Of a stretch of DNA of 30,389 nucleotides, positions 1-26,475 are shown one piece after another (positions within the stretch are counted from its first letter, which is position 1; each line of letters starts with the position of its first letter). The translations under genes were made by a program, and so were the position numbers. Origin of the DNA: a virus (taxonomy: Duplodnaviria > Caudoviricetes); IMG/VR virus record IMGVR_UViG_3300012267_000019, positions 1 through 30,389 of that record. One strand, given 5' to 3'. The notes beneath the pieces are model-generated. The model was not told the origin of the DNA, made no database searches, and saw only the letters and a list, made by a program, of their open reading frames with translations.

Positions 1-58
1 GCCCAAGGAGGAGCCCAAGGAAGAGCCCAAGGAAGAGCCCAAGGAAGAGCCTAAGCAG
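1..58 (+). repeat. 12-bp tandem repeat (GCCCAAGGARGA) encoding PKEE units
   Basis: Four near-identical copies followed by a degenerate PKQE copy; in frame within the scaffold-like ORF. Confidence 0.9.
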
Positions 59-1000
59 GAGGGTGACGAGCCTAGGGAAGAGCCCAAACAGGAGCCCAAG
101 CAGGAGCCGAGCACTGACCCCAAGGCCCCCGCGTCTGGCGAAGAGCCTGCGCCGGAGGGGGAGAGCGGGGACCAGCCACAGAAACTCCCTGGCGGAGAAC
201 AGCTCCCCCCTGATAATCACGCTGGACAACAGCAGCTTGACCCAGCTACTCTTGCTTATATGTTCCAGCAGCTTAGTGCTGGTAACCGGAATCAAGGGCA
301 GCAGTCACGGCAACAGCAAGAGCAGCAGTCACGGCAACAGCAAGAGCAGCAGCCGTACCAGCCGCCCAAGGACTGGAAGGAATACCTCACTGACGAGGAG
401 AAGCAAGTCCTCGACAGTTACGGGAAAGAGTGGGGGGAGGTAAGCGAGGCAGAGCAGATTCGCACTCAAGCTATCGCCCGCCACACGAGAGAGCAAGTCC
501 TGGCAGAAGTGAATCAAGTATTAGCGCCGATTGCTGAGCATATCCAGGAATCGAAGGTACAAACTCACTTTGGCAGGATTCGGGGAGCCCACGAAGACTT
601 CGACACACTGAAGCAAGGTGCGTTGCAGGGGTGGGTAAACCAACAGGCCAACCCGGTAATTCGGGAAGCCGCTGCACAGGTTTTGAGAGACGGCAGCGCA
701 GAGCAGGTGATTGGCCTGATAGACCTCTACAAGAAAGACGTAGGGGGTAACGGTACCGGACAATCGACGGGTGCAGCGCCAAATGTACCAGCCTCGTCTC
801 AAGTTCCGGCTAATAACGGGGGCACTACACGAGTGACAGAGCAGCCAACCCAACCGGCCAAACCGCCGAAACCCGCTGCTAACACCCGTGCGGCTTCCGC
901 AACAGCCGCAGTGAACACCGGCAGCCGTGGGTCCGACCCACGCGGCAGTGACCCGAACGACTTTGACTCGGGCTTTGCCGAAGAGCTTGCTGGAACCTGA
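2..1000 (+). CDS. Putative capsid scaffolding/assembly protein, 5'-truncated
   Basis: The frame of ORF 260..1000 is open back to position 2 (PKEEPKEEPKEE...DPATLAYMFQQ). It has an acidic, low-complexity N-terminus, a helical core and a short acidic C-terminal motif (DFDSGFAEELAGT). It lies directly upstream of the capsid gene, so the function is inferred from position and composition. Confidence 0.6.
   Translation, partial: PKEEPKEEPKEEPKEEPKQEGDEPREEPKQEPKQEPSTDPKAPASGEEPAPEGESGDQPQKLPGGEQLPPDNHAGQQQLDPATLAYMFQQLSAGNRNQGQQSRQQQEQQSRQQQEQQPYQPPKDWKEYLTDEEKQVLDSYGKEWGEVSEAEQIRTQAIARHTREQVLAEVNQVLAPIAEHIQESKVQTHFGRIRGAHEDFDTLKQGALQGWVNQQANPVIREAAAQVLRDGSAEQVIGLIDLYKKDVGGNGTGQSTGAAPNVPASSQVPANNGGTTRVTEQPTQPAKPPKPAANTRAASATAAVNTGSRGSDPRGSDPNDFDSGFAEELAGT
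298..352 (+). repeat. 24-bp tandem duplication GCAGCAGTCACGGCAACAGCAAGA (QQSRQQQE x2)
   Basis: Two exact copies plus a partial third, read directly. Confidence 0.9.
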
Positions 1001-5233: not shown

Positions 5234-8200
5234 ATGGCTACAGGACTAGGGATCGGGGTAGACCCGGCTGCGGAGGCTGCGAAGGGTGCAGTGGAGGCGT
5301 ACCGCAACCGGAGGAGTGCGCCTTCTACTCAGGACATGCAGTACTTGGCTGAGTTAGTCCGCAATAATACGCGTGACCGCAGTCGTACGTTTGGCGAGGT
5401 TGCCGGTGATACCGGGTTGTCGCTGCTAGGGGGCGCCATAGACCTCGGGCAAGCGACGTACGGCATAGGCAACATGGCCACCCTGGGTACCCTAGACGAG
5501 GTGACGGGGGGTTTCTCCGGGAACTTCCGTGAGGCGGGGGACGCTGTGCAGGGCTGGCAGTCTGAGCCCCTGCAATTACGTAGGGAGGACGCCAACGCGG
5601 CGTTCGATGACGGCCTCGTGTCTGGTGCTCAGGCGTACTTGAGCGACCCTAGCCTACTTTGGGACATAGCCGGACGTGCGGTACCTTCTCTGATCCCTAC
5701 CGTAGCCGCAGGTGGAATGGCTGCCCGGACGGTAGGCGCTGTTGCAGGCAAGGAAGCTGCGCAGAAAGCTGCCACTACAGCCGCTATCCGCACAGGTGGG
5801 GCACAGATAGCGGGCTCCACCAACGTGGAAGCTGTCCGCACGCTGCGAGAACAGGACGTAGACGGCGTTGCTCGTCCTCTCCTGGGTCTAGGCGCAGGTC
5901 TGGTGGCAGGCATCGGAGGCGGGGCTATAAGCCGGTTCACAGGCGCGGGCGCCTTGGAGGGTGCCGTGGGCCGCAGGTTGGCCGGTGTCGGCGGCACAGG
6001 GGCTGGTGTGGGCGCTGTGAAGGGCGCAGTCGGCGGCATCGGCCGTGAGGCGACGGAAGAGGCCCTGCAAAGCACCCTGGAGACTACCGCTGTCAACGCT
6101 GTGGCTCCCGACAACACGTTGGGACAAGGTGTAGGAAAGGCTGCGGTTATGGGCGGCATCGGCGGTGGCCTGATCGGTGGACCCCTGGGTGCTTACGCCG
6201 GTATGGCTAACCCCCCGGCTCCTGACGCCCCGGCTAGAGCAGCGGATGACCCTGGACTGCCCAACGTGGACCTGTTCGGCCGTGAAGTATCCACGGAGGG
6301 ACCGGCCGCGCCTACACCAGAACAGCTTGATATGCAGATCAGGGCACGTGCTGACGATCTTATCGAAACCAGCGGGTACACAGACGCCGAGGCAATGCAG
6401 CAGGCGACGAGGGAGATTGAGCCCCCGGACTTTTCCCTTGCAGCTACTCCCGACGAGATTGACGTGCGTATCAGGGAGCGTGCCACGGGACTTGTCGAGA
6501 ACGAAGGGTTTACAGAGGCTCAGGCATTACAGCAGGCGACACAGGAGCTGTCACCTCAGCAGGAGCTTGGTCTTGAGATCGAGCAGGAGCCGGAGTTACG
6601 GCTTACCGGCGAGGAGCAGCGTGCGGCTGACCTGGGTGGCGTCCTTATACAGAACGAAATTCTGTTCGAGGGCGAGAACGGCAACATCGAGGTGAACCCT
6701 GAGCAGCAAGCCTTGTTTGACCAGGCTACTGAAGGCATGACGCGGGAACAGTGGGACGCTACCCTGCAAAGGATAATGGATGTACGTAAGAAAGCGCGGG
6801 AAGAAGGTGCGCGTGTACGCCAACAGGTAGAAGAAACGACTCGGGTTAATCAGCAAGCCGGTGTAACTGAGGGTGACATTCGGTCGGCCAAGCAGGTAGA
6901 GGTCGAAGAAAAGCAAGCCCGAGTAGAGGCCGAGACACTATCCAAGTACAAGGAAAGCGTAGACGAGGAAGGAAACAGGAAGTACACCCGGTACGATCCC
7001 TACGAACAGCGGCTAGTGACAATAGACAGAGGAGAGGCTGTAAGGGATGCTCGCCGCGTAGTCGAGGAGCAGGACGCCCGTGCGCAGGAACAGCAGGAAG
7101 CCCTGGAAGCCGAGGCTAGAGAAGCTGCTCGTCCGGTAGACGAGAAGTGGAGGAGCTGGCTGGACGAGAGCGAGACGTTTGAGGTCAAGAAGAACAACCT
7201 CAACAAGAACAACAAAGAGTGGCAGCGGTTTAAGCAGGCAGCGCTTGACGCCAACATAGCACCGGGTACCCCGGAGGCTGGGGTGTTCCTGTCTGACATG
7301 GCCAACGAATTGGGCAAGTCGGCTACGAAAGCGGGTGTCTTGGGCAGGACCCTGGGCACCGTGTATGACGTTACGACTGACATGGACCCGGTACCTGCTA
7401 CGCCTGCGACGGAGCCAGAGCAACAAGTTGGTACGCAGCAAGAGCGTGACGATAGGTTGCTGGACCCGACTACGGCTCCTGTCGAGCCCCCTGCCGAGCC
7501 CGTGGTCGATACGCCCGCAGATTCTGCGCCTATCCAGGACCTGGAGGCACGGCAATCGGCAGGCGCCCCGTTGGTACCTGCTCTGTACACCCCCGATGGG
7601 CTGCCCTTCGATAACCGTAAGCAAGCCAACGATGCGAAGCGTCGTCGGTGGCTCAAGGACATCGCTATTGAGAATAACGTCAAGATAGCTGACTTGAAAG
7701 CCGAAGAGATACCCGGCCGAGGGTGGGTGCTCAAGGTGCAGACGTACGATGACTTCAGCCCGCAGCAGGCACAAGAGCAACAGATCGAGGAACAGCAAGA
7801 GATACAACAGCAGGAGCAAGAGGCTGCTGCTGACCCCGTACTTCAGAAAGCAGAGGAAGCGGTTATACCTCCTGCCGAGAAGTCAGATATAGCTTTGCAA
7901 CAGAAGCAGGCTAACGTAGAGCGTATACAGAGGAGAGTAGAGGGCTACTACCTTGACGAAGCTAAGAAGGGCGAGAGCCGCACTGAGTTCTACAAGCGCA
8001 AGGGCAAGGATTACCTGAGAGACGAGCTAGTGTTGGCGTCTAGCATGGAAGAGCTGGACACTATGTACGCCTCTATCATGGACACGCCCACGGCTAAGGC
8101 CATGTCCGTGGAGGACAAGCGTGAGCTTGTTGCCATATACAACGGCACGGCTGACCGTGGCAACTTCATGAGGGTAAACCCGGAGGACGATACGGTAATT

Positions 8201-11200
8201 GACTACCGTACGGCAGCGCAGCGTCAGGAGGACGGGGCTACCCCCGAGCCACCTCCTAGCCGCAGCCCTCGTCGCAAGAGAAAACAGGACGCCAAGAAAG
8301 GCAAAGGTAAAGAGCAAGAAGAAACGCTCCTGACTCCTGACACACTAGACGACATCATGGGCAACAACCCTGACGTACAGTTTCACCAGACGGTTGCGGA
8401 CTATAAGAAAGCAACGGGTAGGTACGCGCCTACGGATGCCGCAGGTGTGTTCGACAACGATGGCGTCCACGCTATCCTGTCGAACATAAAAACGGCAGAA
8501 CACTTGGCAGAAGTAATCGCTCATGAAGGAGCACACAAAGGTATCCGATCAATGCTGGGGGACAGGGTGTCGGCTGTCACCAACAGGTTGTGGGCCAACG
8601 CTGCCTTGCGTGAACGTATCCGTACCAAGATGCGCAACCAGTCTCTGGATAGGGCCGGAGCTGCGGAAGAAGTCTTGGTGGACATGATAGCGGCGAACGA
8701 GAGGCTTACTGGGGACGTGTGGACCAAGATAAAGTCTGCTGTCCAGGCTACGTTCGAGTCCACCCTGGGGGTGAGTAAGTACCGTGTGACGGATCGGCAG
8801 GTGGACGCGCTTCTTGACGACGTGGCCAGGGCTACTAGAGGAGAGGATGTTATTAACCGGGGGTACCAGCCCCTGAGCGAGAACGACTTTCTCGATACGT
8901 TGATAGGCAAGCCGCAGGCCATCACTCAGAGCCAACGGTTCTCTCGTGTAATGGAGACGCTTAACCGTGGGAGACCGGATGTACCGGGCAGACAGAACGC
9001 TATAGGGGAGGCAATAAAAGAAGCGACCAACGTAAGCCGCACGTCTTTACGAGACATATTAACCAACATCAAGAGCGGGCAGTACGGCCGTGCGTTCTTG
9101 CCGTTTGTCCCTCTGAACCAGATTTACAACTTGTACGGGCGTAACTTCGACCACGTTATAACGGCTGAGGACGGCACTACCGAAGTGCGCAATACCTTCC
9201 GGGACTTGAACACGCTGAAAGGTGAGCAGGAGGCCCGGTTCAACCAGCGTCTGGCGCGTAAGCGGGACATAGAGCTGGACGGGGAGACTTTCCATTCGTC
9301 AGTGATGGAGCTATCCGACCGGGGGCAAGCGTTCCAGCGGCACAGCCCCGAGAAGGTCGATGACTTGAACTCAGTCCTACAGGAGACTTCGTTCTTCCAG
9401 GTGTGGCCGCAAAAGGCGTGGGAAGACCAGCCAGGTATCAACTACAAGCGGTACAACATGACGCCCGAGGAGCGCAAGGCGGCGTGGGAAGTCCTCAGCC
9501 GCAAGTATAACAACCTGGGCACCGAGGGTCAGACGCTGTACCGGGAAATGCAGGCATCGTACCGTGATGCGGCGGTGTCTCACCTCAACGCGATTGAGGC
9601 GGAGTTGCGGCGCATCACAGGGCGTACCAAGGGCGAGCCCTTGCCGGATGACCACATCCTCCGGGTAGCTCGGAGACAGCTCACTAACGGCCCGTACTCT
9701 CCGTTGATCCGCCACGGTGACCACTTGGTCATAGTGAGGGGGCCGGAGGGCACTGAACACTTATCTGGGCACGATACTCAGACCGAGGCCGAGGCCATGC
9801 GGGTGGCGATGTCCAAGCAATACCCGGCCGTGGACGGCTTCACGGTGTCTCGTACGCTGAACAGCACGGAAAACGGAGTGTTCTCCGGCCTCAACCAGCA
9901 ACAGCTCGACGCGCTTGAGTCTTCCGTCGTCAACGCGATACCGGAAGACTCGCCACCGGAGACGGCTAAGCTCATACGGGACGCGTTGACTGAGACATAC
10001 CTGAAGATGCTTCCTGCCAGTTCCTTCGGTAAGTTCTCCAACCGCAGGAAGAACGTTTCTGGTTACAGCATGGATGGGCTTCGAGCGTACTCAGACTACT
10101 CCCTGAAGGCCGCACGTCGTATATCTGCTATAGAGTACGACGGGCGTATCAGCCAGGCTATTACGGGTATGCAGGAGCATATCAGGGCTAAGGCGGCAGC
10201 GATTGAGCCGGGTCAGATGGACGACGAAGGGCGGGTGGTAAATACCGAGCTTGAGCAGTCGGTGGTGGACAAGGTGCAGTCACAGCACCAGGCAGCGTTG
10301 AACAAGAGTTACAGTAAGCTGGCTTCTACGCTGTCAGGTGCAGGCTTCCTGTACATGATGACCTCTCCGTCACAGTTGTTCGTGAACGCTACCCAGACGT
10401 TTATGGTCGCGATGCCTAGGTTGGCTGCTAGGTACGGAGGGGCTAACACGTTGGCCATAGGCAAAGAAGCCATGGCCAACTTCACCAAGAGCGGAGGAGA
10501 CTTCCTTAGCGAGAAGGCGGCGACGAACGGGTCGGCAGCCACGGGTGTTAGGTCGGTTATGCAAAGGCTGTTCGAGGACGGTACTTTGGACTTCACGTTC
10601 TCTATGGACATGACGGACGCAGCCAACGGCGAGTCCGGGCAGCTTAATGCTACTTGGAGAAAGACGGTCGAGAGCATGTCTGTGTGGATACACAAGTCTG
10701 AGGTGTTCAACCGGCAGATGACGGCATACATGGCGACTAGGATGCACGCGGCCGAGAACAACATGGACCTGGAGAACTTGAGTGACACAGACCTGGATAT
10801 GCTGCACCGAGTGGCTAAAGATGCCGTGGACTCTACGCAGTTCAACTACTCGCAGTCAAACAAGGCTGAGATGCTACAAGGGCCTGTTCGTAGGCTGGTG
10901 GGCCAGTTCCAGCAGTACAGGTTGAACATGATCGCTATGATGGCGAAGGACATACGTGACTCCATGGGCGGCAATAAAGCTACTGCGGAGGAACGGTCGT
11001 TGGCGCGTAAGTCTCTGGCCTACATGCTTGGTACGCAGCTCGCCTTCACAGGCGCTGTAGGTACCGCGCTATCCCCGATAGCGTTCGCCATCATGGACGC
11101 GTTCGGTAGCGACGATGAAGATTTCGTGGACAGCCGTACGGCTCTTCTCCAGGCGGTGCCTACGTTTGTATCCCACGGCTTTATGGGTGGGGTGCTCAAC

Positions 11201-11851
11201 ATGGACCCCAGCCGTATAGAGGTAGGTAGTGTGCTGCCGTTCCTGGGAGACCGTGTGTACGCACCCAAGACGGACGACTTCGGTGAGTCGGCCGTGTACT
11301 ACCTAGAGCAGAACATAGGTCCTTGGTTTGGCCTCACCACGGGGGTCATAAAAGGTACTATGGATGCTATGAACGGGGACTTCTACGAGGCCAGTCAGGG
11401 GCTGCTACCTAAGCCCTTTGCGGACCCGGTACGAGCGTGGCATGAACGGGATGGCGTACGTAACCGTTCAGGAGCTATAACGTACGACACCGGGATGTGG
11501 GACTCTGTGAATAGGGCGCTCGGTATGCGCTCAGCGGATGTACTCGTCGCACAGGAAACGGCTGGCGCGGTGTACCAGGCCACTAGCAATGTCCAAAGGG
11601 CGAGGCAGAACTTGCTGGTCGAGTACGCGACGTACCACGCGTTGGGGGACGACGAGGGTAAGCAGGAAGTGATGGGCCGCATAGAGAATTTCGGTGCCAA
11701 GAACCCGGCTTTCCGTATCGTTGGCCAGGACATAGGCAGAATGTTGGTCAATCAACGTCGCACAGAGCAAAACGTTCGGGAGTTTGGGGCGCCGACGAGC
11801 AGGCAGTTTACTCCGGCTCTCCAAGAAATCACCGGCATTAGAGGGAACTGA
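5234..11851 (+). CDS. Large internal virion / polyvalent-type protein with zincin-like HExxH motif and PLxRFG-like region
   Basis: 2205 aa. Gly/Ala-rich hydrophobic N-terminal region; acidic linker; HEGAH at 8522-8536 followed by AAEEVL; YSPLIRHG with PLIRHG at 9701-9718; helical C-terminal region with TQFNYS and QFQQY. Confidence 0.7.
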   Translation: MATGLGIGVDPAAEAAKGAVEAYRNRRSAPSTQDMQYLAELVRNNTRDRSRTFGEVAGDTGLSLLGGAIDLGQATYGIGNMATLGTLDEVTGGFSGNFREAGDAVQGWQSEPLQLRREDANAAFDDGLVSGAQAYLSDPSLLWDIAGRAVPSLIPTVAAGGMAARTVGAVAGKEAAQKAATTAAIRTGGAQIAGSTNVEAVRTLREQDVDGVARPLLGLGAGLVAGIGGGAISRFTGAGALEGAVGRRLAGVGGTGAGVGAVKGAVGGIGREATEEALQSTLETTAVNAVAPDNTLGQGVGKAAVMGGIGGGLIGGPLGAYAGMANPPAPDAPARAADDPGLPNVDLFGREVSTEGPAAPTPEQLDMQIRARADDLIETSGYTDAEAMQQATREIEPPDFSLAATPDEIDVRIRERATGLVENEGFTEAQALQQATQELSPQQELGLEIEQEPELRLTGEEQRAADLGGVLIQNEILFEGENGNIEVNPEQQALFDQATEGMTREQWDATLQRIMDVRKKAREEGARVRQQVEETTRVNQQAGVTEGDIRSAKQVEVEEKQARVEAETLSKYKESVDEEGNRKYTRYDPYEQRLVTIDRGEAVRDARRVVEEQDARAQEQQEALEAEAREAARPVDEKWRSWLDESETFEVKKNNLNKNNKEWQRFKQAALDANIAPGTPEAGVFLSDMANELGKSATKAGVLGRTLGTVYDVTTDMDPVPATPATEPEQQVGTQQERDDRLLDPTTAPVEPPAEPVVDTPADSAPIQDLEARQSAGAPLVPALYTPDGLPFDNRKQANDAKRRRWLKDIAIENNVKIADLKAEEIPGRGWVLKVQTYDDFSPQQAQEQQIEEQQEIQQQEQEAAADPVLQKAEEAVIPPAEKSDIALQQKQANVERIQRRVEGYYLDEAKKGESRTEFYKRKGKDYLRDELVLASSMEELDTMYASIMDTPTAKAMSVEDKRELVAIYNGTADRGNFMRVNPEDDTVIDYRTAAQRQEDGATPEPPPSRSPRRKRKQDAKKGKGKEQEETLLTPDTLDDIMGNNPDVQFHQTVADYKKATGRYAPTDAAGVFDNDGVHAILSNIKTAEHLAEVIAHEGAHKGIRSMLGDRVSAVTNRLWANAALRERIRTKMRNQSLDRAGAAEEVLVDMIAANERLTGDVWTKIKSAVQATFESTLGVSKYRVTDRQVDALLDDVARATRGEDVINRGYQPLSENDFLDTLIGKPQAITQSQRFSRVMETLNRGRPDVPGRQNAIGEAIKEATNVSRTSLRDILTNIKSGQYGRAFLPFVPLNQIYNLYGRNFDHVITAEDGTTEVRNTFRDLNTLKGEQEARFNQRLARKRDIELDGETFHSSVMELSDRGQAFQRHSPEKVDDLNSVLQETSFFQVWPQKAWEDQPGINYKRYNMTPEERKAAWEVLSRKYNNLGTEGQTLYREMQASYRDAAVSHLNAIEAELRRITGRTKGEPLPDDHILRVARRQLTNGPYSPLIRHGDHLVIVRGPEGTEHLSGHDTQTEAEAMRVAMSKQYPAVDGFTVSRTLNSTENGVFSGLNQQQLDALESSVVNAIPEDSPPETAKLIRDALTETYLKMLPASSFGKFSNRRKNVSGYSMDGLRAYSDYSLKAARRISAIEYDGRISQAITGMQEHIRAKAAAIEPGQMDDEGRVVNTELEQSVVDKVQSQHQAALNKSYSKLASTLSGAGFLYMMTSPSQLFVNATQTFMVAMPRLAARYGGANTLAIGKEAMANFTKSGGDFLSEKAATNGSAATGVRSVMQRLFEDGTLDFTFSMDMTDAANGESGQLNATWRKTVESMSVWIHKSEVFNRQMTAYMATRMHAAENNMDLENLSDTDLDMLHRVAKDAVDSTQFNYSQSNKAEMLQGPVRRLVGQFQQYRLNMIAMMAKDIRDSMGGNKATAEERSLARKSLAYMLGTQLAFTGAVGTALSPIAFAIMDAFGSDDEDFVDSRTALLQAVPTFVSHGFMGGVLNMDPSRIEVGSVLPFLGDRVYAPKTDDFGESAVYYLEQNIGPWFGLTTGVIKGTMDAMNGDFYEASQGLLPKPFADPVRAWHERDGVRNRSGAITYDTGMWDSVNRALGMRSADVLVAQETAGAVYQATSNVQRARQNLLVEYATYHALGDDEGKQEVMGRIENFGAKNPAFRIVGQDIGRMLVNQRRTEQNVREFGAPTSRQFTPALQEITGIRGN

Positions 11852-12631: not shown

Positions 12632-13230
12632 CTAAGTGGATTGACGAGGTAGAGCTACAGTCGGAAGAAGACGCGTTTGACGAGCTGGTCAAGCATACAT
12701 GGGAAGTAGAGGGCGGGTTTTCCAACCACGACTCTGACCCTGGCGGGGCTACCATGTACGGTATCACCGAGGCCGTGGCCCGAGCGCACGGATACACCGG
12801 GGGCATGAAAGACCTCCCCGAGTCATTCGCGCTTTCTGTGTACCGTAAGTCTTACTTTGAGAAGCCTGGATTCCACCTCGTGGCGATGCGTTCTCTGGTG
12901 CTGGCCAAAGAGCTGTTCGACTGCGGCGTGAACACCGGCCCTCCTCGTGCCACCATGATGCTCCAGCGGGCACTGAACCTTCTCAATCAACGCGGCCGTG
13001 ACTGGGCCGACCTGAAGGTGGACGGCGCCCTTGGCGGGAAAACCATGGAGGCCCTGGACTCGTTGATCGGCAAGAGGGGCAAGGTCGGTAAGGATGTTTT
13101 GCTGAAGGCCCTCCTCGTGCAGCGTGGGGCCTACTACATGGACTTGGCTGCGCAGGACGAGAAGTTCGAGGACTTCTTGTTCGGCTGGCTCCGCACTCGC
13201 GTTGACATGGAGCTGATCTGCCATGGCTGA
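12628..13230 (+). CDS. Endolysin, glycoside hydrolase family 108 with C-terminal peptidoglycan-binding domain
   Basis: EGGFSNHDSDPGGATMYGIT catalytic motif, FDCGVNTG, LQRALN, VDG.LG.KT and F.FGWL..RV. Confidence 0.93.
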   Translation: MTKWIDEVELQSEEDAFDELVKHTWEVEGGFSNHDSDPGGATMYGITEAVARAHGYTGGMKDLPESFALSVYRKSYFEKPGFHLVAMRSLVLAKELFDCGVNTGPPRATMMLQRALNLLNQRGRDWADLKVDGALGGKTMEALDSLIGKRGKVGKDVLLKALLVQRGAYYMDLAAQDEKFEDFLFGWLRTRVDMELICHG

Positions 13231-14404
13231 GTCCGCAGAGGCCGTGCTGTCTTTCTCTGCCGGGGAGGACCATGTTTCACATGAAACACGTATCCCTGAG
13301 GGATTCGCACGGCGCGTGGTGAACTGGGACTTGGACGACACGGGGGTGGCCCATCAACGGCCGTCCCTAGACGCGTTTTCTGGGGCCTCAGATTGCCACT
13401 CTGTGTGGCGCAACCCGGTAACGGGGGAAACCCTAGCGGTCTACGGGGAACGCCTATCTCGTCTGTCTGGGAGCACCTTGCTGCCTGTGCAGACGCTGCT
13501 CGGCCAGGATGTGTGGCTGTACGACGGCCGGAGAGTCTACTACTTCGCTCGTAACGGAGTGACGTACTTCACCAACGGTGTCGCTCACGGTACTTTGCGG
13601 CCTGACGGCTTCGTCCACACGTGGGGCGTGCCAAATCCGGTGACCCCGGTGAGGGATACGTCACAAGGCATCGTAAGGTACTTGACGTACGAAGATACCA
13701 ACGGTCAGGAGTCCGGCGCTGTACGGTTTGACGCAGGTGTGCCGCCTCAACGCGTGGGCTTGGTACCTCGGTTGTTCTGGTCAGACGGGGAGACTACCAA
13801 GTATAGGCTGAACGGCACAGGCCGGGAGCTTCGTACGCAATCTCTGGTTCAGTTCCCTCCCGGCAGGTTCTTGGAGGAGATAGGGGGGAGGCTGGCAACG
13901 GTTCGAGGGTCGAAGGTCTACTACACATCTCCCCTAAACTACGGGTTGATAGACCCTAGGTACAATTTCATAGATGCGGGATCACAGATTACCGCTATGA
14001 TTACTGTAGAGGACGGCACTTACGTCTCAACTAAGCATGAGCTGCTGTTCTATTCAGGTACAGACGTAGACGAGCTACGCAGGGAGAGCGTACTGGGCAA
14101 AGGTATACTTCCTGGAGCGGTGTGCCGAGTACCTGTGACTGCGCTGTCACCGGAAGTGAGGACCAACGAAGGTCAGAGGTACGCAGTGGCTGCGCTGACC
14201 GAGGACGGAATAGCCCTCTTGATGAACAGGGGAAACGTAATAGCGCCGACTGGAGGGAGGCTGAAATTGCCGCCTAACACTGAGGTGCGAATGGACTTGG
14301 TAGAACGTGACGGATACTATCAAGTTGTGGCTGTACCCACCCAACCGATAAGTGCTGCCTCTATGGCGGCTATCGACTCACCAGTAGAACCCATAGAGGT
14401 GTAA
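13223..14404 (+). CDS. Virion structural protein (tail nozzle/stabilisation-like, beta-rich)
   Basis: 393 aa overlapping the endolysin stop. The N-terminal pattern R..VN.D.D..G...R and beta-rich repeats suggest a podovirus tail protein; function inferred. Confidence 0.5.
   Translation: MAESAEAVLSFSAGEDHVSHETRIPEGFARRVVNWDLDDTGVAHQRPSLDAFSGASDCHSVWRNPVTGETLAVYGERLSRLSGSTLLPVQTLLGQDVWLYDGRRVYYFARNGVTYFTNGVAHGTLRPDGFVHTWGVPNPVTPVRDTSQGIVRYLTYEDTNGQESGAVRFDAGVPPQRVGLVPRLFWSDGETTKYRLNGTGRELRTQSLVQFPPGRFLEEIGGRLATVRGSKVYYTSPLNYGLIDPRYNFIDAGSQITAMITVEDGTYVSTKHELLFYSGTDVDELRRESVLGKGILPGAVCRVPVTALSPEVRTNEGQRYAVAALTEDGIALLMNRGNVIAPTGGRLKLPPNTEVRMDLVERDGYYQVVAVPTQPISAASMAAIDSPVEPIEV
13273..13288. promoter_or_regulatory. 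parS: parS-like site TGTTTCACATGAAACA (1 mismatch to consensus), intragenic
   Basis: 15/16 match to TGTTTCACGTGAAACA; encodes part of H-V-S-H-E-T. Confidence 0.6.
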
Positions 14405-19373: not shown

Positions 19374-21584
19374 ATGAGTCAGATTGTCCCGGTCCCCGAT
19401 GTAGGCGGGGAGGCCCTTGGTCCCCCCGAAAGCGAAGTCGATAGCTCGTGGGATAACGAGTTTAACTCCGCCAGTTGGACGGTAAACAGTCGGCTGAACG
19501 AGACGTTCAACAGGGCCAACACCATCGTGAGTCAGGCGCAGGCTGCTATCGACGCTATCTCCGGTGGCGTTGACCTGGCTGCCCTGGGGGCTACGCCTAC
19601 GTTGACTCTGAGTGGGACGCTACCTGCCGCGCCGTCTCTGTCTTACACGTTGCCTACTATGCCGACGAGTACGCTGCCCGCTGACCCGGCGAACTACGCA
19701 CCGGGTGCGGTCGATGTGTCCCTCATACCGGACATGGCTAACCTGACGGCACCGGCTGCCCCTGTTCTCAGCTTGCCGCCTGAGCCCACCGTGGCCGTCC
19801 CCGGTGCGCCCACCAAGCCTACTGTGGACTACTCGGTGGACTTACCTACGGCGCCGGGTATCAACCTCCCTACGACGCCCACACTGGATGACATCGACAT
19901 CCCCGATGCGCCGGTCATCTTCATCCCGGACGCGCCACAGGAACTGGACCTCAACCTCCCGAACCTGACCACGCCGAACTTGTCGATGCTGAACCCGGCT
20001 GACTTCGAGGTGGCGATCCCTAGCGGTCTACCGCAGGTTAAGGGGTTCACGGACGCGGACGTATTGGCTGTCAACATACCGCTGAAGGACGACCTCAAAG
20101 AGGCCCTGGCACAGATCATCCTCGACATGAGCACCCCGAGCACCGTGCAGCAGGTGACGGACCAAGAGGTGGCCAGGACCGAGGACTTGGTGGACCGCCG
20201 CGCCAACCGACAGATTGACGAGACGTGGAGCGAGTTCGCTTCCCGTGGCCACGTAGCTCCCCCCGGTGCCCTGGCCAAGAGGGCCGACACCATCCGAGCT
20301 GACGCCGACGCAGAGATTCGAGCTGCGTCACGAGACGTTGCCATGGAGAGGATGCGCTCGGAGGTTCAAGTATTCGTCAGCAAGCTCCAGCACGGGGTGC
20401 AGTTGGCTCAGGCGGAAATGCAGGCCAGCCTGGATTCGTACCGTGCCGCGTTGCAGACCCTCAGTGACAGCAGCCAGTCCAACGTGGAGGCATATAACGC
20501 CATGGTGGGGCTGTTCCAGACCCGCGTGCAGGCGCTGTCTGCCCGTCTCGACGCCCACCGTATCAACGTGGAGACCTTCAACGCTCGTATATCTGAGTTC
20601 AATGCTCGACTGGACGTGAGTCGAGTACGCATCGCTGAGCATGACAGCAACGCGCAGACATTCGATGCCAGGATGCGGGGTGCGTTGGCTCCCTTGCAGG
20701 TGTACCAGACCGAGGTAGAGGCAGTCCGGTCCAAGGTTCAGGTACAACTCGGAGAGGTGCAGTTGTATGAGGCTCAACTACGCGGGCAAGGGGAGGTGGT
20801 CAACCTCTACCGGGCGCAGCTCGACGGTGCGCGTACAGAGCTTGACACCAAGTTGGCTGTACTCCAAGGGTTCCAGACAGAGGTGGAGGCTTTTACGTCG
20901 GAGGTGCGGGCGGTCCAGTCGCAGTACGAGGGCTACCAGACTTTGGTCAACGCCAGGCTGGCTCCTGTCCAACTCTACGAAGCTAAGATGCGTGGGTATG
21001 CTACTGAAGTAGATGCCGAGCGTGTCAAAGTGGAAGGTGGCCGAGCCAAGGTGGACGCCCAACTCGGGGTGGAACAGAACAAGGTTAGAGCGTACACCGC
21101 CAACGTACAGACTTTCGCAGAGAAAGTGCGGGCAGTGTCCACGCGGCTCCAGCAAGAGTTTAACGTCATCCAGTCCCAGCTTCAGCTTGAGCAGATCGAG
21201 CAACAGGGGGAGATAGAGAGGTATCGAGCGCAGGTCAGCGCCCAAGATACTAGCTGGCAAGCGCAGATCGCAGGGTTCAGCGGGGCCGTGGAGGCGTACC
21301 GAGCACGTGCCAATCTGTTGGCAGAAGACGCACGTATCCAGGCAAGCACAACTCAAGGCGCTGCGCAGATCAGTGCTTCCCTGGCCAGCTCGGCGTTGTC
21401 TTCGGTCAACATCGGGGCACAGCTAGGAGCGAGTGCGTCTGCCGGGTTTAGCCGTAGCCAGACTGACAGCACCAGCCGAGGGTACAGCGAGTCCCTGAAC
21501 TTCAATAACAGCGCGGGTAACAACGCTGGCTGGACGGAAAGCTACAGCTATAACTTCGACAACGACAGTCCGAACAGCCCTTGA
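19374..21584 (+). CDS. Virion protein with Pro-rich segment and long coiled coil
   Basis: 736 aa with AGGAGGG RBS; Pro-rich stalk-like stretch, long amphipathic helical region and Ser-rich tail; last gene of the + arm. Confidence 0.6.
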   Translation: MSQIVPVPDVGGEALGPPESEVDSSWDNEFNSASWTVNSRLNETFNRANTIVSQAQAAIDAISGGVDLAALGATPTLTLSGTLPAAPSLSYTLPTMPTSTLPADPANYAPGAVDVSLIPDMANLTAPAAPVLSLPPEPTVAVPGAPTKPTVDYSVDLPTAPGINLPTTPTLDDIDIPDAPVIFIPDAPQELDLNLPNLTTPNLSMLNPADFEVAIPSGLPQVKGFTDADVLAVNIPLKDDLKEALAQIILDMSTPSTVQQVTDQEVARTEDLVDRRANRQIDETWSEFASRGHVAPPGALAKRADTIRADADAEIRAASRDVAMERMRSEVQVFVSKLQHGVQLAQAEMQASLDSYRAALQTLSDSSQSNVEAYNAMVGLFQTRVQALSARLDAHRINVETFNARISEFNARLDVSRVRIAEHDSNAQTFDARMRGALAPLQVYQTEVEAVRSKVQVQLGEVQLYEAQLRGQGEVVNLYRAQLDGARTELDTKLAVLQGFQTEVEAFTSEVRAVQSQYEGYQTLVNARLAPVQLYEAKMRGYATEVDAERVKVEGGRAKVDAQLGVEQNKVRAYTANVQTFAEKVRAVSTRLQQEFNVIQSQLQLEQIEQQGEIERYRAQVSAQDTSWQAQIAGFSGAVEAYRARANLLAEDARIQASTTQGAAQISASLASSALSSVNIGAQLGASASAGFSRSQTDSTSRGYSESLNFNNSAGNNAGWTESYSYNFDNDSPNSP

Positions 21585-21600
21585 TGTTTCACGTGAAACA
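21585..21600. promoter_or_regulatory. parS: Perfect parS palindrome TGTTTCACGTGAAACA
   Basis: 16/16 match to the canonical chromosomal ParB/Spo0J-binding consensus; intergenic, starting at the base after the TGA stop. Confidence 0.8.
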
Positions 21601-21602
21601 CT

Positions 21603-21623
21603 GAGCCCCCGACTGGGGGGCTC
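21603..21623. terminator. Hairpin between the convergent arms, candidate bidirectional terminator
   Basis: GAGCCCCC-GACTG-GGGGGCTC forms an 8-bp stem between two converging stop codons; U-tracts are poor on both sides. Confidence 0.55.
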
Positions 21624-21827
21624 TCATCGCGTACCCACCCTCTTGTTCCACTCTATGATGGCATCCTCGATCCACTCGGTAGGCTCCTGGTAGTTAGTGC
21701 GCACCTCAGGCCCTCGGGCTGCGCACGAGGGGCACTCTATGGCGCCCCACTTGAAGCCCTGGGCCAGGTCGAAAAGGGGACCGGGGGACAGGTCCCCGCA
21801 GAAGGGACATGGCTTGGGTTGGATCAT
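21624..21827 (-). CDS. Lar-family (restriction alleviation-like) zinc-ribbon protein
   Basis: KPCPFCG ... IECPSCAARGP ... AIIEWNKR is the characteristic Lar-like signature; AGGAGG RBS; ATGA overlap with the primase gene. Confidence 0.8.
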   Translation of the reverse strand: MIQPKPCPFCGDLSPGPLFDLAQGFKWGAIECPSCAARGPEVRTNYQEPTEWIEDAIIEWNKRVGTR

Positions 21828-24805
21828 GGTTGACCTCCTGACTGTGCAGTAGCGATTGCCTTGGCTGATACCTCACCGGCACTCGCAGCTTTGAGTGTTG
21901 ATTGGGTTCCACCCATGGCAGGATTGGCCATGTCCAGTACCCAGCACATTGTCTGGCCTCTACCGAAGTTCGTGTTCTTACCTAGTACGTGCTTCTTCTC
22001 CTCGATAAGCACCCCCTGGGTTTGCAGCTCTTCCTTCAGCCGGTTGGGGTCCATGGACTGGCTCGCGCAGTAACGGCGGAAGTCCGCCCGGTCCATGTAC
22101 AACCTGTCGTGCCACGACTCGAACCGGATTCTCAGCTCCCCCCTGGGCTCCTGGGTAATCAAAGGCACGCTGCCCGGCTGCGGCTGGGTACCAATCGTCA
22201 GCGTCTTGTAAAGACTGGAGTTCAGGTAGTCCGTGAGTATGCCGAACCCACTGCGAACGGCGCTGTTGACCACAGTGCGCATCTTGTCGATAGCATCGAG
22301 GACGAACCGGAGCAGACGGCCAATGTCCACGTTGGTCAGGCCCACTGCGTTGGACGCCTCGAACGCTGTCAGTACGCACGCCGGGGCAGCAGACCAGAAC
22401 CGTTCACCGGATGACACGTTGCCTTGCTGGTCGATAACCTGCATCCAGTGCTGCACGCGATCATGCACAGACTTGGCGTTCTTCAGCACGTAGTCCATGA
22501 ACACTGGACCCGCTAACCCGAAATGGTAGTTGAGCTTGTCGAACCCGGTATCAGCTACGGATTTGGGCAGGGTATGACTAGGCACGTAATACTCGAACAC
22601 ACGCACCGCCTCGGCGGAGCTGTCCGCTTTCGCCAGGGTCAGTCGGCTGTGCAGTGAGGCGTTGGAGGTGCAGATCATCATGGTCTGCCAGGACCCGTGG
22701 TCTTCCTTGGCACTGCCATCCTGGTTGAGCCGCTGCCTACCCTGTCCCTTGGACACTGCGTAGCAGAGGTCGGACAGGTCCTCGGCCTGGAGGTTTGTGA
22801 TCTCGTCGTACGTAGCGGGTAGGGTATTTAGTACCCCCAGCTTATTGTAAAAAGACCGTATGGTGTCGTGCTTGGCATCACCCCACCCCATCTTTTTGTG
22901 GCCCCATATCGAGTTGGCCAGAAGAGCAGCACTGGATTTACCACTACCCTTTTCGCCTACCATGTTGACTATCATGCCGTCGAAGTTGGTAAACCGGAAC
23001 AGCGGGGCAGCGAACCCAACGCCGAACCCGAATTGCAACGCTTCCATCCCCGGCTGCTCGTACAACCTTGCCACGGACTTCCACTCTTCCAGGTCGCCAC
23101 GCGGCTCCTGCCAACGCAGGGCGTTGATCGTGTTGCGACTAGGCGTTACCTGCTCAGTCGGTGCCCCGGCTACCAGCACTTGGTCAGGTAGCACGAACTG
23201 GTTATCTTCGCGCCAGCCCATCTTGGCGTACACCATGGCTGACTTAGCGTGATTCTGTAGTTCCTTAATGTATGCAAGCATGTAGTTCACCACGTGTTCC
23301 ATCTTGTCCAGCATCGGCACTACGCCCATGTCGCCTAGCGTAGTGGATAGGGTACGCCTGTCAAACAGGGACCCCAGCGCCAGGTCGAAGTCATCCCACC
23401 CGTCCATAGGTAGGCGCCTACGGATTGTCACGAAGAACTTGCGGGCTCGCTCGTCATAGAACAGGCCCGTAGGATACAAGTCGTTGTCATATATCATCGA
23501 CTCCTCGTCCACGTCATCGGCATTGGTGACGGTGACCGTGATGATAGTCTTGCCAGCACCGTCAACGGCTCGCTTGTAGGGCTTCGGCGCAGGAGGCAGG
23601 GGGAGGCTCAGGGTCTGTCCGGTTGTCGTCGTCAGCGTCATCACGGGAGCGGCTGACTCGGGGCGCTCGCGACCTAGCTGCAACGGGGTGGTGATCTTCC
23701 CGTAGAAGGGGCAGCCCTTACACCCATCGGGGTTCGCGTTCTCGAAGGCGACACAAGTAGACGGACCGTACCCCCCGTCCTTGTGCTGCTGAATCTTGGT
23801 ATCGGTTTCCTCGGGGCTGTACCCCGGATGCCCCTTGGACATCAGGTGGACCGCTTGCTCACCCTTCTCGGCGTGGCGCAGGCAGCCGATCATGGCGTAC
23901 CAGTTGGGCTCGTCTACCCGATCCGGGCGTTCGAGCTGGTCACGTAGCTGCTGACACTTGCCAACAACTTGCTTGGCGTTGGAGGGAGAGTCGGTAACGG
24001 TGCCTGCCATGGCCGCGCTGTTGTCTGCAACAGGTGTCGCGTTGGCCGCTGGGTTGGTACCCGGCAGGGCGGCCGCAACGGCAGGGCCAGCCTGCACAGG
24101 AGCGGAGTCTACCCCTAGAGCCTCGGCAGCGGCAGCGATGCACGACATAAGCTGGCGGGCCGGGTACTGCTGGCCAGGGTCTACTACCACGGACACATCC
24201 CGTGGGCTACCTGTCTTCCAGTTGTACGTACCTACAACACGTAGCACGGAAGCACGGTCTGCGGTACGGCTGGTATCTACTTGTAGTCCATGAGCATGGG
24301 TTACTCGCTTGAGTAGTCCAGCGTAGTGATCCCATGTATCGGGCTCCATGTCATCGGACATAGGCCAGTACACGTGGAACCCACCCCCGGAGTTGACCAC
24401 CAAGGGCTTGGGGAACTGATACCGGGAGCAGAATGACCTGAGCGCGTGGGCGGCTGTGTCGAAGTCCTGGTAACTACCCGGCTTGCCTGAGCGTACGTCT
24501 ATGTCCAGCCAGAAAGCGCCCAACTTGCTTATGTTGGTCTTTACCCTCATGCCTTTCTTGCGTACTTCTTTGATTGACCCGAGTGCAAAATACACATCTA
24601 CGGGGGCGTCCCTGTCTGTAGCCAGGGCGGCGGCTGCGTTCGCTGCGTTCGCTGCGTCTGGGTACGCTGTCTGCCTGAGACCGGACTTCTCTTCGCCTGT
24701 GGACTTATCCTTCCACTTGACGGGGTGCCCTATTATGTAGGGTCCAGTGCTCGGCCATACAGCGCGGAGGAATTGCTGTGTATCCACGGTGCGTCTCCCG
24801 GTCAA
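21824..24805 (-). CDS. DNA primase-helicase (primase-like N-terminus, Cys-rich linker domain, DUF927-type P-loop NTPase)
   Basis: FWLDIDV, VVNSGGGFHVYW and D.A.VLRV.GT.N.K primase motifs; C..F......GCKGCP; Walker A GEKGSGKS; TYDEIT Walker B; G.GRQR; TSN. Confidence 0.85.
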   Translation of the reverse strand: MTGRRTVDTQQFLRAVWPSTGPYIIGHPVKWKDKSTGEEKSGLRQTAYPDAANAANAAAALATDRDAPVDVYFALGSIKEVRKKGMRVKTNISKLGAFWLDIDVRSGKPGSYQDFDTAAHALRSFCSRYQFPKPLVVNSGGGFHVYWPMSDDMEPDTWDHYAGLLKRVTHAHGLQVDTSRTADRASVLRVVGTYNWKTGSPRDVSVVVDPGQQYPARQLMSCIAAAAEALGVDSAPVQAGPAVAAALPGTNPAANATPVADNSAAMAGTVTDSPSNAKQVVGKCQQLRDQLERPDRVDEPNWYAMIGCLRHAEKGEQAVHLMSKGHPGYSPEETDTKIQQHKDGGYGPSTCVAFENANPDGCKGCPFYGKITTPLQLGRERPESAAPVMTLTTTTGQTLSLPLPPAPKPYKRAVDGAGKTIITVTVTNADDVDEESMIYDNDLYPTGLFYDERARKFFVTIRRRLPMDGWDDFDLALGSLFDRRTLSTTLGDMGVVPMLDKMEHVVNYMLAYIKELQNHAKSAMVYAKMGWREDNQFVLPDQVLVAGAPTEQVTPSRNTINALRWQEPRGDLEEWKSVARLYEQPGMEALQFGFGVGFAAPLFRFTNFDGMIVNMVGEKGSGKSSAALLANSIWGHKKMGWGDAKHDTIRSFYNKLGVLNTLPATYDEITNLQAEDLSDLCYAVSKGQGRQRLNQDGSAKEDHGSWQTMMICTSNASLHSRLTLAKADSSAEAVRVFEYYVPSHTLPKSVADTGFDKLNYHFGLAGPVFMDYVLKNAKSVHDRVQHWMQVIDQQGNVSSGERFWSAAPACVLTAFEASNAVGLTNVDIGRLLRFVLDAIDKMRTVVNSAVRSGFGILTDYLNSSLYKTLTIGTQPQPGSVPLITQEPRGELRIRFESWHDRLYMDRADFRRYCASQSMDPNRLKEELQTQGVLIEEKKHVLGKNTNFGRGQTMCWVLDMANPAMGGTQSTLKAASAGEVSAKAIATAQSGGQP

Positions 24806-25182: not shown

Positions 25183-26475
25183 TCACCAGTCGCCGCCGAA
25201 CACGCTATCCAAATCCCTGGCCTTCGGAGTTTGCTCACGTTCCTGGGCGTCTTGCTCAGGGCGCTGGTCCACTACGCCACCGGCCTGCTGCTCGGGCTCA
25301 GGCTCCCCACCGAAGCCGCTAACAGCTTGCTCTTGCTGCGCGGGCTCGGGCTCAGGGGTGCTACCGAAGCCGCTGGCAGCGTCCTCCTGGGCGGGCGCAG
25401 CCTGACGCTGAGCCTGGGGCTCCGGTTCACTGCCGAATCCGCTAACAGCTTGCTCTTGCTGCGCGGGCTCGGGCTCGCGGGCCTTTGCTTGCTGCTGTGT
25501 TTCCGGGGCAGGGGCCTCGGGGCTACCAAACCCTCCGGCAGCGTCCAGGGTTTCCTGCTCCTGAGCCTGGGCCTGCTGCGCCTTGGCCTGTGCAGCCATC
25601 TGGGCTTGTTCGCGTTCCTTGGCGGCTTGTGCGTCGGCCTGAGCCTGCGCTTCAGCCTGAGCTGCCCCCTGGTCCCGCACAGCTTGTTGCGCAGCAGCGG
25701 CAGGGTTCGCACCGGGGAGGTCTGTACCAGCACGTTGCCGGGCGCTGGCGGCTGCCGCTTCGACTAGTCCCGCCGCTAACTTGGTGCTGGGCTCCTCGAA
25801 CCGTTCTTCGGCAGCGTTGTACTCCGGCGTGGTCAGGTAGCGCACGGGGGAGAACTTCAGCTTGGGGTACGTGGCGTCGGTGTCGAAGGCCACGCGGGTA
25901 ACTACAGCGTTATACGGGATGGTCGGCGACACACTGGACAGTTGCTTGACGTGCTTACCCCAGTCCTTCAGTGACATAGCCGGTACGCTTAGGCGGTACA
26001 CCTTGTTCTTGCCCACGTTGTCCGCTGCTACTACTGCCATGGCCTTGGCATCGGAACACTCTTTACTCTCGGCCTTGGTGTGCGGGTTGATCTTGGAGCC
26101 CCATGCGTTATGGGGGCACTCGGCGCAAGTGCGGGCCTGCGGCTTGTCCGCGTTGGGACTAGGCACAACGCCGTCGTCGCTGTAGCAGGTAGGCGCCTCA
26201 GCCTCTTGCGACGGGTTCCACGCGTTCTCGTAGTAGGTCTTGGTGATGCCGTCGTTGACCCGCAGCACTGCCACGTCGATGGCACCCACGTGCAGAACCT
26301 GCACTTCTTCGCCGTCTTCAATGATGCGGAACTTCGACTGCTTGAGGCTTATGCGGTTGACGCCTGCCCCGCCCCCGGTGCCAACGATGGCACCTTTGTT
26401 CATCTCTGCTGCCCGCTCGCTGTTCTGGAGGTGGGCCGGTGCCTGCGACTGCTCGAAGATAGTAACGTCGTTCAT
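25183..26475 (-). CDS. Putative single-stranded DNA-binding / annealing protein with long repetitive tail
   Basis: ATG at 26475 after AAGGTG. Core has RISLKQSKFR, CYSDDG, C.ECPHNAWGS and L.VPAMSLK; A/Q/E/P-rich linker; acidic-aromatic C-terminus DLDSVFGGDW; replication context. Confidence 0.55.
   Translation of the reverse strand: MNDVTIFEQSQAPAHLQNSERAAEMNKGAIVGTGGGAGVNRISLKQSKFRIIEDGEEVQVLHVGAIDVAVLRVNDGITKTYYENAWNPSQEAEAPTCYSDDGVVPSPNADKPQARTCAECPHNAWGSKINPHTKAESKECSDAKAMAVVAADNVGKNKVYRLSVPAMSLKDWGKHVKQLSSVSPTIPYNAVVTRVAFDTDATYPKLKFSPVRYLTTPEYNAAEERFEEPSTKLAAGLVEAAAASARQRAGTDLPGANPAAAAQQAVRDQGAAQAEAQAQADAQAAKEREQAQMAAQAKAQQAQAQEQETLDAAGGFGSPEAPAPETQQQAKAREPEPAQQEQAVSGFGSEPEPQAQRQAAPAQEDAASGFGSTPEPEPAQQEQAVSGFGGEPEPEQQAGGVVDQRPEQDAQEREQTPKARDLDSVFGGDW
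25316..25476. repeat. 38-bp exact direct repeat (25316-25353 and 25439-25476) within repeated EPEPAQQEQAVSG units
   Basis: CCGCTAACAGCTTGCTCTTGCTGCGCGGGCTCGGGCTC occurs twice, 123 bp apart. Confidence 0.9.

Follow-up and report, generated by a model that had tools for sequence, protein, structure and literature searches.

Two host-type parS sites on a podophage-like lake phage and their possible use of host ParB

Plasmid-prophages such as P1, N15 and the cluster A mycobacteriophages carry their own parAB genes beside an unrelated centromere. For phage phi29, five parS sites are reported which are read by the host protein Spo0J, and the phage DNA is segregated into the prespore (PMC2731898). 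Due to this precedent, the use of host parS by a phage is not a new idea. A single parS together with parAB is furthermore described to stabilise unstable plasmids (PMC4368675, PMC7022226). The mostly open-access literature, in its main text, yielded neither a survey of host parS sites in phages nor a Gram-negative case, and the spore entrapment of phi29 is the only case found there of a lytic phage using the host segregation machinery. Here we describe an uncultured phage which, like phi29, carries host-type parS in more than one copy, namely two.

The phage genome and its two sites

The window, i.e. the whole stretch of 30,389 bp that was analysed (IMG/VR record IMGVR_UViG_3300012267_000019), comprises 26 ORFs. 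The plus strand encodes a capsid protein, an adaptor, a DarB-like protein, a GH108 endolysin and more virion proteins, the minus strand a Lar-like protein, a primase-helicase, a SNF2 helicase and nucleases. This is about half of the genome (CheckV completeness 49%). The same phage is present on a contig of 58,468 bp (L191), which adds about 4.4 kb with genes for DNA polymerase A and an exoribonuclease (7 ORFs scanned), while another contig of the phage (L259) contributes no additional sequence. DNA polymerase and primase-helicase are both encoded by the phage itself. The 14 runs listed for it are lake or salt-lake metagenomes. Strain variation amounts to 18 variant positions in 9.8 kb, none of them within the sites, a diversity too low for a selection test. 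In runs X4, X6 and X8 the last late gene has a second allele with a cluster of four substitutions close to its start (19394-19414).

Among cultured phages, Pseudomonas phage Rollin is the most similar (51% for the capsid, 46% for the primase), and Rhizobium phages and other Pseudomonas phages are further removed. Judged from these sequences, the host is probably proteobacterial. The best matches of the endolysin are from Acinetobacter phages (45-47%), and no match was found for a gene of 845 aa. Three MAG contigs were rejected as host evidence, since with 2-9 kb they could be mis-binned phage DNA. Two proteins of the window are anti-restriction candidates: the 2205-aa DarB-like polyvalent virion protein (5234-11851; phrog_10089, LPD39) and the Lar-like protein described below. 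Repeats were seen at the start of the window (8-132, a 12-bp coding repeat) and in a 433-aa gene (25291-25481, three coding copies of 68 bp), where L191 differs slightly (98%).

Site 1 is the perfect 16-bp palindrome TGTTTCACGTGAAACA at positions 21585-21600, an exact parS and the only perfect 16-bp palindrome across the whole window. Under Markov models of order 0 to 4, between 3e-7 and 4e-6 occurrences would be expected. The site begins immediately 3' of the TGA of the last gene of the late (virion) arm (19374-21584, plus strand, phrog_10969), and the stop codon provides its flanking A. The 736-aa product of this gene matches proteins from F116-like Pseudomonas phages at about 22%, and some of these proteins are annotated as structural. 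The gap between the two arms is 39 bp long and has no spare bases: the 16 bp of parS are followed by CT, by a hairpin (21603-21623) and then by the stop of the last gene of the replication arm, the Lar-like gene on the minus strand. This location of an exact parS, as the first 16 bp of the gap with the hairpin adjoining, had been predicted originally and was confirmed. An assembly error is ruled out, because site 1 is unchanged in contigs from two other runs (X4 and X10); it is identical in L191 as well. The Lar-like gene (21624-21827) is assigned to phrog_599 (E 3e-9), and its match to the Pfam family Lar_restr_allev is below the family cut-off.

The GC-rich hairpin consists of an 8-bp stem and a 5-nt loop (z -3.4 and -3.2). 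Of the features of an intrinsic terminator it thus shows the GC-rich stem, while a classical U-tract next to the stem is absent on both strands. A terminator scan gave no sites, and neither promoter nor terminator consensus sequences were found between 20500 and 22500. The hairpin is a probable 3'-end or terminator-like element of the converging arms. As in chromosomal parS sites, site 1 is a 16-bp consensus palindrome; the chromosomal setting near oriC and parAB is not found, and phage genes flank the site on both sides. The simplest view of the junction is that of unoccupied space in a densely filled genome, where the last A of the stop codon supplies the usual flank.

The original prediction comprised site 1, which is real, and overlooked a second copy with one mismatch, TGTTTCACATGAAACA, at positions 13273-13288. 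This site 2 is located in the middle of the late operon inside a virion gene, which is related to head-closure (Hc3-like) genes (13223-14404, plus strand; phrog_8040, E 4e-33). Its codons read H-V-S-H-E-T. In an alignment of 11 sequences most homologs have HVAHET at this position and the phage itself HVSHET, and therefore the peptide predisposes this position to a match. However, the site requires six A- or T-ending codons in succession, and these are rare codons in this phage. Given HVSHET and the codon use of the phage, the probability of this codon choice is 3.4e-5, and for HVAHET it is 5.3e-5. The A and C flanks are identical at both sites. Since there are two independent and improbable copies, chance is an unlikely origin. 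Half-sites are not clearly enriched (4 found and 2.1 expected, three of the four lying within sites 1 and 2; in a further count 7 and 6.2).

parS and Par proteins in relatives, other viruses and bacteria

The absence of parA and parB genes from the window, as claimed originally, was verified for all 26 ORFs and by a family search of the whole record. None was found in the approximately 35 of 58.5 kb that were read (window plus the L191 extension). Both sites are surrounded by genes for virion proteins, lysis and replication, and parA or parB genes of the phage's own, as in the cassettes of plasmid-prophages, do not adjoin them. ParB_N was found in none of 39 records of the family, including 14 near-complete relatives, in none of four Kochitakasuvirus genomes and in none of 49 other virus records that contain an exact parS (those searched out of 50 submitted, from 75 IMG/VR loci listed). 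The tyrosine integrase domain PF00589 is absent from 16 of 16 records, of which that of the phage itself is partial. A ParA-like ATPase occurs in one of 17 records, or one of the 14 near-complete relatives. It is a 242-aa protein of a complete relative (G022:C1:2891-3307) that has neither a host-type parS nor ParB_N.

Relatives were collected with the primase-helicase (DUF927; 21824-24805, minus strand) as marker. Five of 45 related records match parS with up to two mismatches, but two of these five had been retrieved by means of their parS. Among the 43 unbiased records, two match with at most one mismatch: G034, which is 94% complete and lacks ParB_N, has an exact intergenic site after a stop codon, and G032 has a one-mismatch site in its primase. 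One more match among the 43 has two mismatches and is at chance level. A scan of the relatives at up to two mismatches, as suggested by the original prediction, hence added the sites of G034 and G032 but left most relatives without one. No site was found at two mismatches in 12 of the 14 near-complete relatives, and Rollin has no parS within three mismatches. The two-mismatch matches in G030 and W02 and the second match in W03 were judged to be due to chance; a reversed control matched 7 of 45 records at that level. The site in G034 (G034:C1:31858-31873, also L227) is an exact parS variant which lies 7 nt past the stop and is closely followed by the hexamer TTGACA. In distant relatives parS was seen in coding sequences, twice in the primase and once in a DarB-like gene (L026:8972-8987, L166:370-385 and L003:10001-10016), where it reads VSRET or VPRGT. 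A different perfect 16-bp palindrome, TGTGACACGTGTCACA, is located in an intergenic region of G030 (G030:C1:5212-5227, also L230) and is possibly a phage operator.

At the position of the junction the site is absent from all 35 related junctions, the best match there having at least four mismatches; these junctions were located by a rough ORF rule, so that some are misplaced, and some loci are duplicates. Several of them keep a hairpin without the site (e.g. L147, L161, L169, L178 and L003). Conservation at the junction, which had been proposed as a check, is thus not seen, and a hairpin kept without the sequence, which had been named as speaking against the reading, occurs in part of these phages, all of which are distant (primase identity at most 51%). 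The closest relatives, among them the eight nearest primase neighbours, were compared as proteins only (primase 57-77%, Hc3 43-58%, last late gene 46-67%). In a FastTree of 48 primases the five parS carriers fall into three separate, strongly supported clades, with each site located elsewhere. parS is not a family trait, and its distribution suggests that sites were gained or lost repeatedly rather than inherited as an element of the junction.

Among five further cultured phages that were checked, an exact site is present in KPP25, a distantly related Kochitakasuvirus of P. aeruginosa. This phage has seven genes in common with ours at 22-30% identity, including polA (29.5%), SNF2 and the Hc3-like gene. 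Its site TGTTCCACGTGGAACA (AB910393.1, 16588-16603; L249:1455-1525) is the sequence of P. aeruginosa parS2/parS3, which are reported as the best bound by P. aeruginosa ParB among the sites tested (PMC4368675). The site lies between the TGA of ORF018 and a hairpin, from which it is separated by a C, and the major capsid gene is located downstream. It is invariant in the four genomes KPP25, phiR18, R4900a and CRPAP1904, which is weak evidence as these are 98% alike locally. The terms parS and ParB are absent from the main text of the paper on CRPAP1904.

The word TGTTTCACGTGAAACA corresponds to the entries for Hyphomonas and Caulobacter in the table of a review (PMC7022226). Of 301 bacterial genomes that were sampled from the class to which G095 belongs, 55 contain it in 1-3 exact copies each, while a reversed control gave none. 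In five hand-picked genomes of these 55 the distance to parB was about 3, 12, 13, 18 and 112 kb, i.e. within 20 kb in four of them. In IMG/VR at least 139 stretches contain the exact word, compared to 11 for one shuffled palindrome. From 74 of 134 loci with flanks, 107 distinct sites were assigned by a rough ORF rule, with 39 in ORFs, 33 in tandem, 14 in convergent and 7 in divergent gaps and 14 too near to an end, which leaves 93 classifiable sites. An A flank is found in 121 of 186 viral half-sites, and for that reason a stop codon is a good neighbour for parS. The original prediction considered the point of convergence to be significant. This is not supported, given the 35 related junctions without a site, the position of site 2 in the middle of the late operon and the share of convergent sites (14 of the 93).

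A 30-mer of the window that spans site 1 has 471 matches among 50,697 phage records, compared to 15 for one control 30-mer; the 471 records are redundant and do not represent a count of lineages. In a sample of 60 rows spread over these matches, each one covers the parS core. Phages of Listeria, Clostridium, Microbacterium, Arthrobacter, Bacillus and Gordonia lead the matches. Of 40 names, the ten most frequent do not include Escherichia; this would fit, as Escherichia is not known to have a chromosomal parABS. Examples of matches to the core (H177, H194, H344, H226 and H213 among others) include Gordonia, Microbacterium, Arthrobacter, Listeria A511-like and roseobacter phages as well as small Microviridae, and some contain several copies in 5-6 kb. 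A host parS present only in cis was originally thought to be unusual, a view not supported in the light of these 471 records of cultured phages and the five sites reported for phi29 (PMC2731898).

Possible functions of the sites

The original claim that site 1 is a host-type parS and not a product of chance is supported by the site statistics, the recoded site 2, the absence of ParB_N and the host variant in KPP25. Judged from the sequences, the host very probably possesses a ParB by which this word is read and bound. The two sites would then load the host ParB clamp in cis. Through ParB, host ParA would give the phage DNA its position on the nucleoid, and the DNA would be inherited when infection comes to a halt in slowly growing cells. 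On balance we lean towards the view that the sites serve the positioning or inheritance of the phage DNA through host ParAB. We commit to it because a single parS with ParAB stabilises a plasmid and because phi29 enters the prespore via parS and Spo0J. The weakest inferred step is that selection acts on a benefit in positioning or inheritance. Site statistics, enrichment in viruses, the absence of ParB_N, the host-matched variant in KPP25 and the phi29 precedent were counted in favour. Counted against were the lack of conservation in the family, the phage's own polymerase and primase-helicase, the ParA-like ATPase in one of the 14 relatives, the link of the phi29 usage to sporulation and the approximately 24 kb of 58.5 kb that lie outside the sequence read.

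In a different scenario the sites would act as decoys, with amplified phage genomes exceeding the few parS sites of the host in number, titrating ParB, stalling chromosome segregation and division and enlarging the infected cell. This fits a lytic phage in whose relatives no tyrosine integrase was found, and Caulobacter cells depleted of ParB are reported not to divide (PMC7022226). Two sites per phage genome compare to the 1-3 exact copies of the positive bacterial genomes, but two are few for a sponge. Moreover parB is described as non-essential and its loss as mild in Pseudomonas (PMC7022226), where KPP25 keeps one site. We regard a decoy as unlikely. The location of site 1 next to a hairpin without U-tract suggests another role, in which ParB would form a roadblock or act as a repressor that insulates the converging arms and substitutes for the missing U-tract. 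ParB is indeed reported to repress the genes beside parS3 and parS4 of P. aeruginosa (PMC7022226). Such a boundary is nevertheless very improbable, since site 2 is located within a late gene, the KPP25 hairpin has a full U-tract and lies in a tandem gap, and the large majority of classifiable viral sites are not convergent (14 of 93 are).

About 40% of the genome is outside the sequence read, and one could suppose that these approximately 24 kb encode a ParB or another protein that reads the palindrome, the more so as one relative has a ParA-like gene. The 14 near-complete relatives without ParB_N, together with G034 and the complete KPP25, which both carry parS but no ParB_N, make such an autonomous system very unlikely. 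Recruitment of condensin, which would organise the replicating phage DNA, or a chromosome-like mark against host defences appears highly improbable to us. The report that ParB-parS marks SMC start sites (PMC9449133) is general and not specific for this phage, nothing here points to SMC, and the sites are patchy in relatives. Finally, palindromes without function would explain that most relatives lack the sites, and the Hc3 peptide HV[AS]HET predisposes site 2. With an expectation of at most 4e-6 for the exact site, an independent 3e-5 to 5e-5 for site 2 given either peptide, and the same A and C flanks at both, chance or neutrality is extremely unlikely.

Positioning or inheritance through host ParAB is thus the reading that we retain for this phage. 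Whether it can be generalised, such that the borrowing of host ParB by a bare parS is widespread and was repeatedly acquired by virulent phages across phyla, including those of non-sporulating Gram-negative hosts, with host-matched variants and a benefit in positioning or carrier-state inheritance, appears to us evenly balanced. If it is true in non-sporulating hosts, virulent phages would have a cis-only route to persist or to organise their DNA in slow-growing cells. The parS variant of a phage could also give a sequence clue to the identity of its host. The phage described here is one uncultured case, and the larger value lies in the breadth among cultured phages and in KPP25 on P. aeruginosa PAO1, a ready test system in which parS and ParB are well mapped.

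Comparison with known systems

The cassettes of plasmid-prophages are similar to the present case in having a centromere on phage DNA and differ from it by their own parAB, which was not seen here. The chromosomal ParABS systems of the Caulobacter, Hyphomonas and Burkholderia chromosome 1 type share the identical 16-bp word according to the review table (PMC7022226), whereas here a phage carries the word, and the approximately 35 kb read contain no parAB. Kochitakasuvirus, whose site was found in this analysis and is not a described system, resembles our phage in the order TGA, parS, C and hairpin and in the absence of ParB_N. It differs by the P. aeruginosa variant of the word, by one exact copy, and by a tandem gap in which the hairpin has a full U-tract.

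The closest likeness is to phi29 and Nf, phages classed as lytic, for which host-type parS sites in cis and in several copies are reported as well. The binding protein is reported to come from the host in phi29 and would do so here. The descriptions of phi29 include spore entrapment, parS sites together with Spo0A boxes and five copies. The phage analysed here has a podophage-like genome of about 58 kb, two copies of parS and cultured relatives that infect Pseudomonas and Rhizobium. The hosts of these cultured relatives are not known to sporulate. The mode of action is probably like that of the phi29 system, the difference being a host that is probably non-sporulating and Gram-negative.
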